Shown here piece by piece: positions 4,036 through 61,405 of a stretch of DNA of 64,000 bases; position 1 is the stretch's first letter; each line of letters starts with the position of its first letter. This DNA is from Deltaproteobacteria bacterium (GTDB taxonomy: Bacteria; UBA10199; SPLOWO2-01-44-7), in the NCBI GenBank assembly GCA_023265595.1, contig JAHFSU010000004.1, forward strand, positions 1,667 to 65,666, given 5' to 3'. Made by a program: the position numbers and the translations under genes. The notes under the pieces were generated by a model. It ran no database searches, had not been told where the DNA came from, and saw nothing but the letters and a program-made list of their open reading frames with translations.

Positions 4036-4845
4036 TTAACGACCGGCTTTGAAGCCGATCCAGTCCTCAAACGCATCGTAAAAAGTAAAGCCGACGCGAG
4101 GATTTGAGCCATATCTTAAAATGGGGCTCTGCACCAGATCTAACATAAATTTCTGGTCCCACGTTCCGTAGAGGCCGTTGCTGGCGCAAACTCTCCCTGC
4201 AAACCGTCTATAAATACCGTAACCTGTGCAGGCGCTCAATTGATTATAGAGGTTGGCCACTTCGGCATCATTCCAATTCATGGAATAAGAACAATAAAGA
4301 TAGTGAGCACTCTGAACCGGAAGTGCTTTCATATTGATTTCAGCAACATTTCCATCGGAGCAGGTCAGTTGATAAACAAAATGAACCTCTTGGGGGCATG
4401 GATCGAGTACCGCCCCTTTGGTTAACGTGAATGAAAAAACAAAATTTTTCATCTGTTCCACACTATCATTCAAATGCAATTTTCCATCACCCACTTTTTC
4501 CGGAAGATCCGGATCGATTTTTCTCCCCCCTGTGCTGAGATAATATCGGTTGTTCCCATCCAATATTTCAATCTCAAGAAAAGAACTCATCGACATAATC
4601 GGACTGCCGCGTCGAAAGGGACAAAATTCTTCGACTCGATCATTCCAATAATCTTGTGCCACATCAGGGGATAATGGCGGACGCTGTTGGCGTGGTAAAG
4701 AATTTGCTCCCGATGGCAATGAAGAGGCGGGTAACGATTGTGGCTGGCCGGAGCTACTACGAGAGGGGTTGGAACCGGTACCTCCCTTTAAAGAAAAGCC
4801 GACCACTAAGATCAAAACTGTCACGACATATAATATTTTCTTCAT
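4036..4845 (-). CDS. secreted hypothetical protein
   Basis: Start re-assigned to MKKILYVVTVLILVVGF (ATG at 4845), which has AAGGAGGAG 5 nt upstream. Signal peptide followed by an S/P-rich linker. Confidence 0.5.
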   Translation of the reverse strand: MKKILYVVTVLILVVGFSLKGGTGSNPSRSSSGQPQSLPASSLPSGANSLPRQQRPPLSPDVAQDYWNDRVEEFCPFRRGSPIMSMSSFLEIEILDGNNRYYLSTGGRKIDPDLPEKVGDGKLHLNDSVEQMKNFVFSFTLTKGAVLDPCPQEVHFVYQLTCSDGNVAEINMKALPVQSAHYLYCSYSMNWNDAEVANLYNQLSACTGYGIYRRFAGRVCASNGLYGTWDQKFMLDLVQSPILRYGSNPRVGFTFYDAFEDWIGFKAGR

Positions 4846-5010: not shown

Positions 5011-5625
5011 TCACGCTTCCAATTCGGCATTCCAATAACTGAAATCGACGATATTGAGATACGGTTTCCATGCGGCGTAAATATTGGGTCTGGCCAAGAG
5101 AAGGGAAAAAGGAAAAGCACTGGGGCGGTAAGGCGGCTTGATCAATTTCAATCCGGCCTCGTGCGGCGTCCTTCCCCCTTTATGACAATTACAATGATGG
5201 CAACTGGCCACCACATTATCCCATGTCGTCTTTCCCCCGTGTGAGCGAGGGATCACATGATCCAAATTGAGCTGGCCTCTCGCCAATTTCTTTCCGCAAT
5301 ATTGGCAGGTGTAATTATCTCGAATTAAAATATTCAAGCGTGAAAAGCGGATCTCTCGTTTGGGAAGGCGATCGTAGGCAGTCAGCAAAATAACTCGCGG
5401 CACCACAACCAGCTTGTCGACCAAACCGACGGTATCATCATGAACGGCGGCCGATAATTCGGCCCAACTCTCAAAATCAAAAGTCCGATATTGATGGTCA
5501 ACCGCCTTGGCGATACCTCGATACAAAAGACAAAAGGCACGTTTTACAGATGTGACATGGACCGGAAAATAAGATCGATTTAAAACTAACACTGCGGTAT
5601 GCAGCATATGGGAATAGTATAACAA
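5011..5625 (-). CDS. HNH endonuclease
   Basis: HNH motif LDHVIPRSHGGKTTWDNVVASCHHCNCHKG. Start overlaps the stop of the upstream GntR gene. Confidence 0.7.
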   Translation of the reverse strand: MLYYSHMLHTAVLVLNRSYFPVHVTSVKRAFCLLYRGIAKAVDHQYRTFDFESWAELSAAVHDDTVGLVDKLVVVPRVILLTAYDRLPKREIRFSRLNILIRDNYTCQYCGKKLARGQLNLDHVIPRSHGGKTTWDNVVASCHHCNCHKGGRTPHEAGLKLIKPPYRPSAFPFSLLLARPNIYAAWKPYLNIVDFSYWNAELEA

Positions 5626-6360: not shown

Positions 6361-8081
<1,721 letters not shown>

Positions 8082-11843: not shown

Positions 11844-13615
11844 TCAAGTTCGCTTAAACCATTTTTCGATTTCGCTCAGCGAGAGTTCAACGCTTGTTGG
11901 GCGGCCATGAGGGCAATGGGTGGCGTGGTATTCATCCATCTCGATCAACAGATGGCGCATTTCTTCGAAGGACAATTTATCCTGAGCCCGCACCATCGTA
12001 TGACAAGAGATCGTTTTCAAAACGTGATCGATCGCATTGCCGACCGTTTGTGCCGTCCCTATCTCCTCTAATTCCTCGGCTATTTTTTCCAGCAGTTCCT
12101 TGGTTTTGGCTTCGCGAATCAAGGCCGGCACCGCTTTGATGACAAAAGTGTTTTGACCAAATGGTTCGATTTCGATTCCCGTTTTTTGTAAATCTTCCAG
12201 ATGACTATTCATGAGGGCGGTCTGTTTGGTTGTGGCCTCCCATGTGATCGGAACCAAAAGTCTCTGTGCCACATTTTTATTTCCCAAATTTTTCTTCAAT
12301 TTCTCAAAGCCAATTCTTTCGTGCGCCGCATGTTGATCGATCAGGATCAGTTTGCCACCAGACGCCTCGCACAAAATATAGGTATCATTAAAAGAGCCGA
12401 TGACTTTGAGCTCTTTGAAAAAAAACACTGGAAAATTTTCCGGATCGCGCAAGCGAGCCGGTTGAGAAAAGCGTCCCGGAGCCACGCCATACATTGTGGG
12501 GGCTACGAAAACTGGCGGGGCGAGGGTCGAACCCCCAATTTGGGGGTGAAATCCCCAAATTGAGGGGTGTCTTTTCGAAACCGGCTCGCTTGCGCGATCC
12601 GGAAAATTTTCAGTTTTTTTCTGCAACGCTTTTTTTATCGCCTTGGAAACAAACTCATGAATGCCCTGCGGTTTGACAAAACGGACTTCGCGCTTGGCCG
12701 GATGGACATTCACATCGACCTCTTTGGGATCGATCTCCAGATACAAAACGGCTTTGGGGTAGCGCCCCTTCATCAAAAAATCGCCGAAGCCGGCAATTAA
12801 GGCATGTTGCAACATCCGGTCGCGCAAAAAACGACCATTGAGATAAAAGTGGATATCGTTGGCCGTCGATGCCGTCTGGTTGGGAGAGACAAGCCATCCT
12901 TTTAGTGTCAACTCCGGATGCCTCTCTTCGACCGCAATCCCATTGGCAACAAAATCATCGCCTAAACAAGATTGCAGTCGCTGCAAAGGATCTTTCCCCA
13001 CAGGAGATGAAATTTTCGAAACACCATCAACAGAATAATCAAACGCACAATCAAAGTTGGATAAAGCCAAACGGATAAAAATGTCTTCAATGTGGCCCAG
13101 CTCCACTCCGTCTGATTTCAAAAATTTAAGACGGGCCGGCGTGTTGTAAAAAAGTTCCTGCACCAAAACACGTGTCCCTTTGGGAGAGGCGGCCGGACTC
13201 GCCTCAACAACCTTTCCTCCATGCACCTGAACAGCGGCCCCTTCCAGAGTGGCCTCTTGGGCCTTTGTCCAAATCTTCATTTTGGAAACGGCCGCAATGG
13301 AGGGGAGCGCTTCGCCGCGAAACCCGAGTGTCCGAATATTGAAAAGATCCCCCTCACCGGCAAGTTTGCTGGTGGCGTGGCGTTGAATGGCCAACTGAGC
13401 CTCTTCCAAACTCATGCCACAGCCGTTGTCGGAAATTTCAATCTGGTCGCTTGGCCTCTTGGAAACGGCCGCTTGAATATGTGTCGCACCGGCATCGATG
13501 GCATTTTCCATCAGCTCTTTGACAACCGAGGCCGGGCGCTCGACCACCTCACCGGCCGCAATTTTATCTGCCAGTTGTTGCGGCAAAATTTTGATTGGAG
13601 GCATAAGGGATGGCA
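11844..13615 (-). CDS. mutL: DNA mismatch repair protein MutL, carrying an in-frame palindromic insertion in the linker
   Basis: N-terminus MPPIKILPQQLADKIAAGEVVERPASVVKELMENAIDAGA (GHKL ATPase). C-terminal dimerisation domain with FVIKAVPALI. The linker holds ...ENFPDRASEPV...FSQPARLRDPENFP... encoded by a 33-bp inverted repeat. Confidence 0.9.
12431..12611. mobile_element. MITE-like structured palindromic element inserted in-frame in mutL
   Basis: A perfect 33-bp inverted repeat, gaaaattttccggatcgcgcaagcgagccggtt (12431-12463) against 12579-12611, flanks a 115-bp hairpin-rich core. The reverse complement of the core aligns with 45261-45410 over the identical blocks tttcgaaaagac, tcgaccctcgcc and gctccgggacgcttttct. 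Confidence 0.7.
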
Positions 13616-20080: not shown

Positions 20081-20261
20081 ATACCGTTATCGTCCCCCCT
20101 CCAAAAAAGTTGCTTTGTCTCAAGAATGCAACATGTTGTGTTGCGGCGCTACGAAATCAAAGAGTCGTAATAATAAAAACTAAATAAATTCAAAGCATTG
20201 CTCTTGTCAATCCTTGGCCTTCTTTTTGCAACATTGAGAAAGAAAAAAACAAGGAGGCAAT

Positions 20262-20486
20262 ATGGGAAACCGCATCACCGATGTAACCAGCGTGACAGAA
20301 AACTGCCGTTATGAATGGTACAAAACTCATGATGAGTTTGGCATTTTGGTGGACGATGTGCGAAAAAAGTGTGATCACTATTATCGTGCCGACTTCGCCG
20401 ATGGGAGCCAAAAAGAGGTTGCCCTTTGGGATTATTTAAAGTTTCACGTGAACAAATTATTTCACTCCTCTGAAAATACAAAATAG
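20262..20486 (+). CDS. small hypothetical protein (74 aa)
   Basis: AAGGAGG sits 6 nt upstream of the ATG. No recognisable motif. Confidence 0.5.
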   Translation: MGNRITDVTSVTENCRYEWYKTHDEFGILVDDVRKKCDHYYRADFADGSQKEVALWDYLKFHVNKLFHSSENTK

Positions 20487-20644
20487 ATCTTGTTTTTATC
20501 ATAAGGAAAAAGGGACGGGAGTGTGTCTTTCTTGCGGGGCCATCAAAAATTTCGATGACCGAGGCGGGCAGACGGCTTCTTGTGAAATACCAAGCAACTT
20601 TTTTGGAGGCCTGCCGATAAGTAAGATAGAAAGGAAAAAATGTT

Positions 20645-44874: not shown

Positions 44875-45195
44875 ATGGCCAACTCCAAGCCACCGTTTCA
44901 TCCCCTCGACGAAATTCTAGGCCGATTTTTGAAAGGCCGCAAGTGGGAGGCGAAACTGAAACAATATTCGCTGCATACCCGCTGGGCAGAAATTGTCGGC
45001 CCCAAAATTGCCATTCAAGCAACCCCGACCATTTGGCGCGGCAATACATTATTCGTCGAAGTCTCCCATCCGGCTTGGCTGACGGAACTCCGGATGATCG
45101 AATCCGACATCCTCGAAAAAATCCGTTCCCATTGTGAAGGAATCGCAATCGAAAAAATCCATTGGATCCTAAGACCCGCTGTCTCACATAAATAA
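44875..45195 (+). CDS. DUF721 (DciA-like) protein
   Basis: ..LHTRWAEIVGPKIAIQATPTIWRGNTLFVEVSHPAWLTELRMIESDILEKI.. matches the DUF721 W-x-EIVG...L-x-V-x-V-x-S-x-W-x-x-EL pattern. Divergent from the dksA-like gene. Confidence 0.6.
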   Translation: MANSKPPFHPLDEILGRFLKGRKWEAKLKQYSLHTRWAEIVGPKIAIQATPTIWRGNTLFVEVSHPAWLTELRMIESDILEKIRSHCEGIAIEKIHWILRPAVSHK

Positions 45196-45227
45196 TCTTC
45201 TACGACGTTTGTGATGCGGCGGGTTTT

Positions 45228-45436
45228 TGCGAGGTTGTGAGGACTTCCGCGCACTGTTTTCGAAAAGACGTGGGTTGTTTTGGGGAGTTCCCCAAAACAC
45301 CCACTCGACCCTCGCCTCGCCGATTTGTTCCGCCCCACCTACACGGCAGGTGGGGCTTAAACCCCCAATCGGTGCGGCGAGGCTCCGGGACGCTTTTCTT
45401 AAAACAGTTCGCTCGCGTCCTCACAACCTCGCATCA
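45228..45436. repeat. structured palindromic element A, same family as the mutL insertion (candidate structured RNA or MITE)
   Basis: Long-range imperfect inverted repeat gcgaggttgtgaggac... against ...gtcctcacaacctcgc. It encloses nested hairpins (ttttggggagttccccaaaa; cccacctacacggcaggtggg; cctcgccg/cggcgagg). The core aligns to the reverse-complemented mutL insert. Confidence 0.6.
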
Positions 45437-45501
45437 AAAGAGCATATTGTACGGCCCCCGCAAAACAAAATGTCCGTTTTGTTTTGGAGGAGGGTTAAGC
45501 A

Positions 45502-45696
45502 GTGACATGGCAATGAGGGTGATGAAAAGCCTGCGGATGGCGATTTTATCAGCCGGGATACAATAAATAAAATCGCCACCATAGGAGCGAAATCAGCTAG
45601 CTCGGATGCGACGCTTTCGCGTCGCCGTTAAACGCTGTCGCGGGGCCGTCCCAAAAATTGTCGCGTCTTTTCAGCACCCTCATTGCCATGTCACTT
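45502..45696. repeat. structured palindromic element B (20-bp perfect closing inverted repeat around hairpins)
   Basis: gtgacatggcaatgagggtg (45502-45521) is the exact reverse complement of 45677-45696. Internal hairpins include ggcgatttta...taaaatcgcc and gcgacgCTTTCgcgtcgc. No plausible CDS. Confidence 0.5.
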
Positions 45697-45699
45697 CAT

Positions 45700-45752
45700 G
45701 GTCATCCTGAGGGCGTGCAATCCCGAGCCGGTCAGGACCCATCCCTTTTTGC
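45700..45752 (+). terminator. putative intrinsic terminator ending the dciA-A-B transcript
   Basis: GC-rich hairpin ggtcatcctgagggcgtgcaatcccgagccggtcaggaccc, then atcccTTTTTgcg. Confidence 0.4.
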
Positions 45753-45791
45753 GATTTCATTCGAGGTCGTAGAAGATTATTTATGTGAAAT

Positions 45792-46430
45792 TTAAGACTT
45801 CTGAAAGCAGCGAATCACTTCATCGGCTGGGATGGCGCCGTCGCGGATAATGCGCATCGTCTCGTCGGTCACGTCAACCACCGTGGAACCGCGCGACGGT
45901 TCCTGCTCTCCGGCATCGATAATACAAGCCAGCCGGTTTTCAAAATATTTCCGAATATGTTTGACGTTGAGCGACGGCGGAAAACCGCTCAAATTGGCGC
46001 TCGTTGTCGTCAGCGGCCGCCCCACTTTGGCCACCAAGGCCGCCGCCACCGGATGCGAAGAAACGCGGACACCGATTTTTCCGGTATTGGTCACCAGACT
46101 TTTCGGAAAAGAATCTTTCACATGAAATAAAATCGTGAGCGGACCGGGCCAAAAACGGCGCATGAGGGCTACGGCCCTCTCCGGAATTTCATCGACAATG
46201 TCACGCAACATGCTTCCATTAGCCACTAAAACGGAAATGGGGAGTCCGTAATCGCGGCTTTTAAGATCATAGATTTTTTTGATCGCCTTTTTGCTAAAGA
46301 CATCTGTTCCCAAACCGTAAATCGTCTCAGTCGGATAGGCAACAACCTCTCCCTTTAAAATGAAATCGGCCGCTTTGGCGACAGCTTCCGCCTCCGGAAC
46401 TTTCGGACTGATCTGAATAATTTCGGTCAT
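45792..46430 (-). CDS. tsaC: L-threonylcarbamoyladenylate synthase (YrdC/Sua5 family)
   Basis: KGEVVAYPTETIYGLGTDVFSKKAIKKIYDLKSR matches the YrdC signature. Start MTEIIQ abuts the purD stop. Confidence 0.8.
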   Translation of the reverse strand: MTEIIQISPKVPEAEAVAKAADFILKGEVVAYPTETIYGLGTDVFSKKAIKKIYDLKSRDYGLPISVLVANGSMLRDIVDEIPERAVALMRRFWPGPLTILFHVKDSFPKSLVTNTGKIGVRVSSHPVAAALVAKVGRPLTTTSANLSGFPPSLNVKHIRKYFENRLACIIDAGEQEPSRGSTVVDVTDETMRIIRDGAIPADEVIRCFQKS

Positions 46431-58438: not shown

Positions 58439-61405
58439 TTGACGAAGAAAGGGTTGATGACCTCCATACTAAACCTTGCCCATTTACAAACCGGTTCGGG
58501 TCTCCTCTTTGGCATGCCGGAGACCCTTTATGCCGACCCCAAAATCGCCGCCAGCGCTTTTTTGGCCGTTCCCGCGATGGAACTCGGCGCCGAACTCCAT
58601 GCCATCCGCGATGCCTATGTCCAAATTGATCCGAAGTCCGGTCAAAAATTTCGCCGGCATCTACACGACTACAAGAGGGCTTTGAAAGAGGAGGATCAAA
58701 AAGCCGCATGGACTGCGCAAAGATCCATGGCCGCTATTTTTCGAAGGACCGGCCGGCGGCATTGGGAATTTTTGTTGGAAAAACTTAAAAAAAAGGGATG
58801 GCCGATGAGAAACGGGTTTTTGAAAACGCCGGCAAGTTCGAAGAAACATGTCATCTCTATTTTGGAATTGAGAATGATGGAGTGGGATCCTCAAGATTAT
58901 CGGCTGGATCCATCCCGTTTTTCGATCACAGACCCGATTCGTATCTCTTCCCTGAAGACTGTCGAACAAAAGATCGCCTCCCTTTTCGAACCGGGTGCGG
59001 ACCGCGACCGCATCCCATGGTTTGTCTTTGAAGGGCCATGGCCCATGGACAATTTGTTTTTGATCGATCCCAAAAAAATTGAGGCCGCCTCCAAAGACTA
59101 TGCCAAAAAAGCGGTTGCCTTGATCACGGTTGCGCCGGAAAATCGGCACATCGCCCTCTATTGTCATCAAAACCGGTTCGGTCTCTGGGAGCTTTTTTGC
59201 TATTCGGATTATTACGACAACCCGGACGGCCTTTGGCAATGGGATCATCATGCCGCATTTTGGGAAAAATGGGATTTGACCGGCATCGACAAAGAAGGGG
59301 GCAATCGGTTTATCTTTGCGAACCTCAACACGGAGCTCTATTTTTCCGGACGCTTTAAGAGACCCATAGAGGTCGATCCCGATTACCGTAAAAAAATCGA
59401 AAAGAGAATGCGAAAAGGGACATGGATCGGCGAGAGATGGAAAGAGGTCCTTCAAAGACACCCCTTGTTATTCCGGTGGCTTTCCCTCCCCCACTCACTT
59501 GTGGAAATCCCCGTCTCTCTTGATGCGCTCCGTTGCGAAACGGATAAGGGTCTGAATGGGGCCACAGGGGCTCTCAGAAATATCTGGCATCTTCTTGATG
59601 AAAAAGACCCGGATGAAGCCGAATACAAAAAGAGGATCCTTTCTCTTTTGAAAAGTCTCCGCTACGGTCGCGAAAAGGATTTCAGAGAGCTCGGCCTTTT
59701 GCTGGAAGAGATGCATCAGAATGAATATATCGACCAACACCAAATGAAAGTCGGTTTTTATCAACTCACCAGAGCACAAAAAATTCTGCGCGATCAGAAA
59801 AAACTCGAGCAGGGCAAAAATCGGGAGATGGAGACCGTATCTCTCCGCTTGGGGCTTTGGAGACGCGATCCGTGGTTCGACGGCTTGATCGGCATCAGCG
59901 ACAGGGCCTATGAAGATTTAAGCAATCAGGTCCTTCTCCTTTATGCCCCCAACGGCGACATGCTGGACGCTTGCGCCCTTCGCCTCTTTGAAGATGAAAA
60001 GGAAAATCTTTATCTTTTTTATGATCCCCTTCCTTTCCCGTATCGTCACTGGCGTGTGGAAAATTACGAAAAAACGCTGTTGCAATGCATCCGAAAGATC
60101 GGAAAAAAATGCGGAATCCCCGAAGACCGGATCCGGGAGATGCAGGGGGTTCAAGATTTCAACTGGCTCCAAGGGATAGGCGGTCTCCATCCTATAACGG
60201 CATCCAAGGAAGAAAGAGCGGCGGCGCTGGAAAAAAGAAAAATATGGAGACACCCTCTCGAAGGTTTTCTCGCGGAGGGACAGGGGACCTATGAGGCACT
60301 TAATATTTTTGGGTCGAGCCGTCTTGTTTTTTGTAACCCATGGCTCGGTGATCGGATCCCGATCCCCAACGGATTTGATGGGGTCCCTTATGAACTTCTC
60401 CCTCCCAAAAATGTCGGCTTTCCTCTTTCACTGACAATCAATCCCGAACCGCATCTTGCCGGCACCCAAGTTGTCGGTTACTCAATCGGAACAGGACGTT
60501 CGATCGATCTGGCTGTCGATTTCAAGGATAAGGATGGGGTGCAATGGCATCACTTGAGTCTTGTCGGCGTGGGGAAGACACACCGCGCGCGGCTCGGGCG
60601 TCTGGAATTTCGGGATGGACAACACTCGCTCGATGTTGCCCAACGCCGTTTTTATCTCTCGAACCTGATGCATTTTTTGGGACTCCGCACCGCGCGCGGG
60701 ATGGCCGTCATCAGCGCCGAAAGGCCGCGAGAAGGAGCTTTCAAAAATGGCGCCTTGCCCCAAATTCAGGCTATCCTTTATGAACTCTGCCGGGAACAGC
60801 TTCGACTGGATGATTTGTCACGCGCCGAAAACCCGTACCGGATGATTCATCATGTCAAAAGAAAAATTGCCGCGGAGCTCGGCCTCCCACGCATGAGCGA
60901 TGCGGAATATGTGAGATGGCTTGGCCATACACTCGGTGAACAGTTCGCCCTGATGATCTTTTACGGTTTCGATCACGGCGTCTTCAACGGGATGAGCCAG
61001 CTTACTGCCTTCAACGTCTCCTTGGCCGGTGAGATACGCGATTTTGATGCGGCCGGACTGACCCGCGACCGAAATCGACTGCACGATCGTTACTTCCATG
61101 GAAAAAAGAGTGTTTATAGTACCGATTTGAATCTGCACGCCGTTCTAAGAATGCAGCAGATGTTGTCCAGAGGACCCCGAAACATCCCCCGCGCCACCGG
61201 CAAACCATGGCTTCATTTTCTGCTCGATCTGGCCCCGTATGCAAATTTTTACGATCTGTTTCAAACCGCGATGGATCGGAAGCGACAGGAATTGGAAACG
61301 AGCGGGATCGATCCCAAGGCCGAGATCCGGCGTTTTAATACAGAGATGTGGAATCCCTATATGCGGCAATTAAGGAATTCCCGTTTACACGGGGATGACA
61401 AATGA
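58439..61405 (+). CDS. large hypothetical protein, paralog 1 of a tandem family
   Basis: 988 aa, no TM or signal peptide. Shares blocks with the next gene: GYSIGTGRSIDLAVDF..DGVQWHHLSLVGVGKT, RFYLSNLMHFLGLRT, LYELCREQLRLDDL, MSDAEYVRWLGHTLGEQFALM..FGFDHG, DFDAAGLTR, WNPYMR. Confidence 0.6.
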   Translation: MTKKGLMTSILNLAHLQTGSGLLFGMPETLYADPKIAASAFLAVPAMELGAELHAIRDAYVQIDPKSGQKFRRHLHDYKRALKEEDQKAAWTAQRSMAAIFRRTGRRHWEFLLEKLKKKGWPMRNGFLKTPASSKKHVISILELRMMEWDPQDYRLDPSRFSITDPIRISSLKTVEQKIASLFEPGADRDRIPWFVFEGPWPMDNLFLIDPKKIEAASKDYAKKAVALITVAPENRHIALYCHQNRFGLWELFCYSDYYDNPDGLWQWDHHAAFWEKWDLTGIDKEGGNRFIFANLNTELYFSGRFKRPIEVDPDYRKKIEKRMRKGTWIGERWKEVLQRHPLLFRWLSLPHSLVEIPVSLDALRCETDKGLNGATGALRNIWHLLDEKDPDEAEYKKRILSLLKSLRYGREKDFRELGLLLEEMHQNEYIDQHQMKVGFYQLTRAQKILRDQKKLEQGKNREMETVSLRLGLWRRDPWFDGLIGISDRAYEDLSNQVLLLYAPNGDMLDACALRLFEDEKENLYLFYDPLPFPYRHWRVENYEKTLLQCIRKIGKKCGIPEDRIREMQGVQDFNWLQGIGGLHPITASKEERAAALEKRKIWRHPLEGFLAEGQGTYEALNIFGSSRLVFCNPWLGDRIPIPNGFDGVPYELLPPKNVGFPLSLTINPEPHLAGTQVVGYSIGTGRSIDLAVDFKDKDGVQWHHLSLVGVGKTHRARLGRLEFRDGQHSLDVAQRRFYLSNLMHFLGLRTARGMAVISAERPREGAFKNGALPQIQAILYELCREQLRLDDLSRAENPYRMIHHVKRKIAAELGLPRMSDAEYVRWLGHTLGEQFALMIFYGFDHGVFNGMSQLTAFNVSLAGEIRDFDAAGLTRDRNRLHDRYFHGKKSVYSTDLNLHAVLRMQQMLSRGPRNIPRATGKPWLHFLLDLAPYANFYDLFQTAMDRKRQELETSGIDPKAEIRRFNTEMWNPYMRQLRNSRLHGDDK

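Follow-up and report, generated by a model that had tools for sequence, protein, structure and literature searches.

REP and BIME sequences, whose transposases are the RAYTs, are extragenic palindromes that gather where convergent genes end, and they may stabilise a transcript or terminate it; each REP unit is a simple hairpin of 20-40 nt, of which there are hundreds of copies. Intrinsic (bidirectional) terminators and sRNAs derived from 3'UTRs also bring stable hairpins to positions just after a stop codon, between convergent genes. MITEs, among them BOX, RUP and SPRITE of Streptococcus pneumoniae, Correia of Neisseria and ERIC/IRU of enterobacteria, are larger (~100-300 bp) non-coding units with terminal inverted repeats and strong hairpins, which lie between genes, especially at 3' ends, and vary in presence between related genomes. 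Clusters of bacterial MITEs, and MITEs inserted within other MITEs, are documented for BOX, RUP and SPRITE, and the RPE of Rickettsia are in-frame palindromic insertions of ~100-150 bp that also occur between genes (PMC10969869).

Here we describe a palindromic unit, element B, in the spacer between the convergent genes dciA and tsaC of an uncultured "Deltaproteobacteria bacterium" MAG lineage, analysed within a window of 64,000 nt (the whole stretch of DNA studied). Like the MITEs, B is small (195-221 nt, where MITEs stay below ~500 bp) and non-coding, has terminal inverted repeats and strong hairpins, and belongs to a block whose presence varies at orthologous sites of related genomes. It differs from the BOX, RUP, SPRITE, Correia and ERIC families in that our searches found neither sequence similarity to them nor a second copy or a clean target duplication. 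Unlike the REP units, B was seen a single time, has several hairpins and measures 200 nt, and there is no RAYT gene near it; compared with terminators and 3'UTR-derived sRNAs, the region of 200-600 nt with its nested palindromes is far larger and is unconserved in relatives. We conclude that B is probably an orphan, a palindromic insertion of the MITE-like kind, which lies nested together with a second unit, element A, in a composite that was set into the overlapping ends of dciA and tsaC.

Anatomy of the dciA-tsaC spacer

The features of the junction, in window coordinates, are as follows; a strand is given where one applies.

44875-45195, plus strand: dciA (Pfam DciA)
45170-45181: putative target duplication, left side, TAAGACCCGCTG; aligns to the single dciA/tsaC overlap of relatives L010 and L011 and now encodes part of the DciA tail
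45184-45206: left arm of the outer repeat, TCACATAAATAATCTTCTACGAC; independent Logan contig L025 agrees
45228-45433: element A, a 206-nt palindromic unit; 44-nt arms, 77% complementarity; z -13.3
45453-45496: small hairpin between A and B, CCCCCGCAAAACAAAA...TTTTGTTTTGGAGGAGGG; z -3.4
45488-45529: left arm of B; perfect 20-mer at 45502-45521, inner end GAAAAG at 45524-45529
45530-45666: core of B; sub-hairpins at 45538-45578 (AT-rich) and 45608-45625
45667-45708: right arm of B; perfect 20-mer at 45675-45694, inner end CTTTTC at 45667-45672
45698-45750, plus strand: loose hairpin and five T (45746-45750); missed by the terminator scan; z -0.96
45766-45788: right arm of the outer repeat, 3 nt short of the tsaC stop codon; independent Logan contig L024 agrees
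45792-45803: putative target duplication, right side, TTAAGACTTCTG; contains the end of tsaC with its stop codon, minus strand
45792-46430, minus strand: tsaC (Pfam Sua5_yciO_yrdC)

The two genes converge on a spacer of 596 nt that holds B, and a perfect 23-nt inverted repeat (45184-45206 / 45766-45788), overlooked in the original prediction, brackets this spacer entirely. Repeats included, the block measures 605 nt; dciA takes its final 4 codons and its stop from the left outer arm. From left to right it contains element A, the small hairpin at 45453-45496, element B and a weak hairpin. The entire spacer is predicted to fold at ~-304 kcal/mol on the plus strand (z ~-15) and -307 kcal/mol on the minus strand (z ~-14), and the 178-nt remainder after removal of A and B is still one long hairpin (z -7.4): the spacer is a set of nested palindromes, both strands of which fold equally well. 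No ORF in it has a Pfam match or a detectable homologue, and with folds of this strength the region is, as had been predicted, structured and devoid of coding capacity.

Within this block, the 20-mer GTGACATGGCAATGAGGGTG at 45502-45521 (plus strand) has its exact reverse complement at 45675-45694. The perfect 20-bp closing stem first predicted for B is therefore real in both arms, its right arm lying 2 nt to the left of the 45677-45696 originally assigned. By our own estimate, ~2e-5 perfect 20-bp inverted repeats within 300 nt are expected by chance in 64 kb, and when the window was put through 100 dinucleotide shuffles, none held two matches to the GTGACATGGCAATGAGGGTG arm, even with 3 mismatches permitted. 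The stem is the core of a longer inverted repeat with 42-nt arms of 83% complementarity (45488-45529 / 45667-45708), so that B extends over ~45488-45708 with a clean core at 45501-45695. Both of the further hairpins that had been named inside the stem are present: an AT-rich one, TGGCGATTTTAT / ATAAAATCGCCA, of 12 perfect bp (45538-45549 / 45567-45578; z -3.5), and GCGACGCTTTCGCGTCGC at 45608-45625 (GCGACG CTTTC GCGTCGC; z -2.5). Alone, B folds at -101 kcal/mol (z -7.1), and its 137-nt core without the arms has a z of only -2.1. Folding of one strand or the other gives nearly equal energies, -120.9 against -121.5 kcal/mol; the outer stem has three G.U pairs, all on the plus strand, a bias that is not significant (p ~0.25). 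The only candidate for a target duplication flanking B is the 5-bp GAGGG at 45490-45494 / 45710-45714, which is not an unambiguous one.

The GC-rich hairpin and T-tract downstream of B, first taken for a terminator, behave as ordinary sequence: the hairpin at 45698-45742 folds at -17.6 kcal/mol (z -0.96), 32 of 200 shuffles fold equally well, only five T follow and the terminator scan did not call it. The 20-bp stem of B is itself followed by CUUCAUGG, with no U-tract. An intrinsic terminator is a compact GC-rich hairpin with a U-tract at once after it, and neither B nor 45698-45742 has this arrangement.

The same junction in related genomes

Using TsaC, we retrieved 11 related loci from the contigs of species-representative genomes; the comparison set came to 23 loci and 237 kb in all, and the top TsaC match overall is 92% identical. 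In two relatives, L010 (TsaC 83% identical) and L011 (82%), the 3' ends of dciA and tsaC overlap, by 13 nt and 59 nt respectively, and the spacer is absent. In L005, L006 and L007 (TsaC 82%), the junction has a 206-nt spacer with an unrelated 89-nt palindrome of the CCCTCTCCC...GGGAGGGG type with 40-nt arms (5691-5779 in L005; also in L006 and L007), and the occurrence of a different palindrome at this junction marks it as a recurrent landing site. In the 92% relative, GCA_030688705.1 (L013; contig ends L001, L002 and L003), three contigs all stop 40-117 nt past tsaC, and downstream of tsaC lies another non-coding hairpin sequence that has just a 10-mer in common with the window's spacer. Presence and absence at the orthologous site hold for the block as a whole, which is empty in L010 and L011 and replaced by other contents in L005 and L013; in the window it is inserted DNA.

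The junction may also retain a trace of the insertion event. Among relatives, the C-terminal tails of DciA diverge past a conserved IHW motif, and in our alignment the ancestral overlap segment (TCAAGATCGCTG in L010), which is single in the empty sites, appears on both sides of the window's insert. This arrangement suggests insertion with a target duplication of ~12 bp. The two copies match at ~8 of 12 positions and stand 2-3 nt away from the outer repeats, so we treat the duplication as putative.

Palindromic units are not confined to this junction: relatives' genomes carry other, unrelated units of ~200 nt between convergent genes. In L012 (TsaC 74% identical), for instance, two tandem units of ~200-225 nt occupy the dksA-gshA spacer (7514-7737 and 7776-7974), with arms of 42 nt and 26 nt; the second holds a nested palindrome, and neither resembles A or B. 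Separately, L013 contains two copies, ~630 nt apart, of the palindromic 25-nt TCATGAGGTGCCAGGCACCTTATGA (4429-4453 / 5057-5081).

Element A and the search for further copies

Element A is a repeat with two copies in the window. The second, at 12422-12620, lies in the opposite orientation and has 50-nt arms at 88% (z -14.6); the two share the core GAAAAGCGTCCCGGAGCC ... GGCGAGGGTCGA ... GTCTTTTCGAAA, and they show compensatory differences in their arms and sub-hairpins. This second copy lies in mutL (11844-13604, minus strand), in frame and stop-free, and fills nearly the whole MutL linker between the ATPase and dimerisation (C-terminal) domains. In the nearest MutL representative (61% identity) the linker is of similar length and unrelated sequence, which, taken with the palindrome, suggests that the A copy was inserted into mutL. 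An exact look-up of this MutL returned no record; its start codon may be called differently, or the contig may be broken at the element.

Like the RPE, the A family occurs both between genes, once, beside B, and in frame within a gene, once, in the linker of mutL; it differs in phylum and has no sequence relationship to them, the A and B units are longer (~200 bp) and B has been seen only between genes. Whereas classical MITEs conserve their terminal repeats, the A family does the opposite, keeping its inner motifs and varying its outer arms. Just outside the inverted repeat and on the same side, GCTCTTT(T)GA precedes both A-family copies (12413-12421 and 45434-45443, minus strand); it may belong to the element as an asymmetric part, or else be a target sequence that the element prefers.

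B matches A in size and architecture, and where its long stem ends on the inner side it carries the GAAAAGC...GTCTTTTC of the A family. By a rough estimate this would arise by chance with a probability of ~1e-4, which suggests, without proving it, a common ancestry or a common recognition site. B is not a member of the A family: the A core is absent from it, and blastn finds no similarity beyond GAAAAGC and GTCTTTTC.

Two other palindromes were seen in the window. A 32-nt inverted repeat (84%; 20087-20118 / 20589-20620) encloses a 534-nt unit (20087-20620) that has a small ORF inside (20263-20487, 74 aa) and is flanked by two larger genes, and a 22-nt inverted repeat (82%; 59016-59037 / 59446-59467), its arms 408 nt apart, lies within the long ORF 58439-61405.

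Searches for B elsewhere were negative throughout. The 64-kb window contains B once; neither A nor B nor the spacer has a homologue in the 23 relatives' loci (237 kb; blastn, word size 7), and the exact 20-mer arm of B has 0 matches in 185,579 species-representative genomes. In the JGI metagenomes this 20-mer matched twice, at L008 430-449 and L009 714-733, both in the same coding sequence (…GDMAMRVSSELIM…); since the matches fall in a coding region and have no partner arm, we regard them as chance. The spacer has no blastn match in plasmids or phages, and viral contigs scanned with the A core, a 16-mer of the B arm and the outer repeat gave either nothing or single-arm chance matches. Six-frame peptides of B and of both A copies found nothing at E<=10 among 5.8 billion proteins, and exact look-ups of the spacer ORFs found none on record. 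We know of no parent IS for B, and the gene lists show no transposase within ~10 kb either side of the spacer.

Against Rfam (release 15) at gathering scores, the whole window yielded only a tRNA; at E<=10, the region 45100-45900 gave only chance-level matches far below threshold, so that the Infernal/Rfam comparison proposed in the original prediction returned no RNA family for B even at that cut-off. Three specific candidates were also rejected: a 6S RNA, as the core of B is multi-branched, has no central bubble and has no Rfam match; an integron attC site, as its GTTRRRY-like motifs are wrongly placed and there is no integrase; and a retron msr/msd, as a reverse transcriptase gene is absent.

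Origin of the insert

Absence of the spacer where the dciA and tsaC of close relatives overlap argues for selfish MITE-like DNA, not a conserved regulatory RNA. In the reading we favour, the 605-nt block would have landed where the two convergent genes once overlapped at their 3' ends, and duplication of ~12 bp of target on insertion would account for both having stayed intact. The unit or units would have been mobilised in trans by a transposase encoded elsewhere, and the palindromes would have become nested through successive insertions, a landing pad between convergent gene ends being harmless. The strong predicted fold would then be a by-product of inverted repeats at the DNA level and not proof of a selected RNA, and whatever effect the hairpins may have today, for instance in blocking or stabilising read-through from dciA or tsaC, would be secondary. 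Several observations sit awkwardly with this reading: B is single-copy in everything searched and has only the ambiguous GAGGG as a target duplication of its own, no transposase was seen within ~10 kb and no parent IS is known, the A family varies its outer arms where MITEs conserve theirs, and the perfection of the 23-bp outer repeats beside imperfect target copies is an odd contrast for a simple old transposition. The suggestion that B represents a second repeat family comes nearer to the evidence than the sRNA does. The DNA is inserted and lineage-specific and its neighbour A is a repeat, but no second copy of B occurs in the collections searched, and the option is plausible but unproven.

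Breaks in independent short-read assemblies of the same organism also speak for the insertion reading. The window's exact TsaC and DciA also occur in ENA ERZ27297570 and Logan SRR14366766, the contigs of which stop inside the dciA-tsaC spacer. The Logan contigs (L024 and L025) reproduce 45184-45213 and 45727-45792 exactly, which shows that the outer repeats are not an artefact, and the ENA contig extends back to ~45661, through the right arm of B, as judged by coordinates and a matching ORF call. On the dciA side the Logan contig ends at 45213, that is, 45184+29. Logan graphs use k=31 (PMC12424806), and a break at 45213 is expected if two different predecessors lead into the 31-mer whose first base is also that of the outer repeat. 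It is a hint only that the outer unit has more than one setting, since strains diverging past 45213 would break the contig there as well. In the source species and its 92% relative alike, every short-read contig ends shortly past tsaC or dciA.

The Logan break thus points to a repeat that begins at 45184, the edge of the whole block, and to none at B, which is what one would expect if B were an internal module of a 605-nt composite that moved by its outer 23-bp repeats, or a local inverted duplication made in place. The singleton status of B in all searches, the lack of a clear target duplication around it and the fact that the outer repeats are the only perfect terminal ones fit this account as well. 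We nevertheless regard it as the less probable one, albeit a serious competitor: A, which has the same architecture, is found alone at 12422-12620, with neither B nor the outer repeats, and so indicates that such modules move, or are copied, on their own. B also has a 42-nt terminal repeat to itself, and what is left of the block once A and B are taken out is a complete hairpin. Independent movement of B as an MITE-like unit, if it took place, would be in keeping with these features.

A broader proposal, which we put forward only tentatively and think rather unlikely, is that A, B and the outer unit are undescribed palindromic mobile elements of this RIFCSP-type lineage, which would keep their structure while diverging in sequence, nest at convergent junctions and enter disordered protein linkers in frame, as in mutL. 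GAAAAGC...GTCTTTTC, and not the terminal repeats, would in that case be the site for a mobilising enzyme acting on the folded hairpin.

It is improbable that B is a functional structured RNA, whether a 3'UTR element or sRNA made with or after dciA, or a closed mRNA of the hok type, in which the 20-bp stem would hide the start of a 19-codon ORF (ATG at 45507, MAMRVMKSLRMAILSAGIQ). The attractions of the idea are the very stable fold with its sub-hairpins, the restriction of the three outer-stem G.U pairs to the plus strand, a weak sigma-70-like site inside B (45546-45573), the five-T run downstream and GGAGGAGGG 12 nt upstream of the ATG at 45507, but beyond stability none of these gives positive support. 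With all three G.U pairs on one strand, p is ~0.25; the fold of the minus strand equals that of the plus; shuffled sequence does as well as the "terminator"; the hairpin at 45453-45496 engages GGAGGAGGG in pairing; and the 19-aa peptide is not hydrophobic, unlike type I toxins. Nor does B have what would characterise an sRNA or conserved non-coding RNA: relatives hold no homologue of it, which leaves the fold without covariation support, their orthologous site being empty (L010, L011) or otherwise occupied (L005, L013), and the only promoter-like site, a 9/12 consensus match, lies within B itself. Without an Rfam family even at E<=10, at an unconserved site, with strands that fold alike and a terminator at chance level, the structured sRNA first suggested as one identity for B found no backing here.

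An artefact of assembly, such as a fold-back chimera or a wrongly joined repeat, is a very unlikely source of the nested palindromes: short-read assemblies of the same organism do fail across the spacer and independent DNA covers none of 45214-45660, but the Logan contigs match both edges exactly, the ENA contig runs through the right arm of B, the interior consists of several distinct palindromes with imperfect arms and not one simple fold-back, and dciA and tsaC are both intact.

Read as a probable MITE-like insertion, the locus carries a caution: a z of -15 and a perfect 20-bp stem mimic a large structured RNA, where close relatives show a lineage-specific insert. It is also a natural example of palindromic elements splitting two overlapping convergent genes, of an insertion rewriting the C-terminus of DciA, and of palindromic units accumulating at one hot spot across related genomes. 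The in-frame copy of the A family in mutL would, if it is such an insertion, bring RPE-like behaviour to a new phylum, outside Rickettsia.
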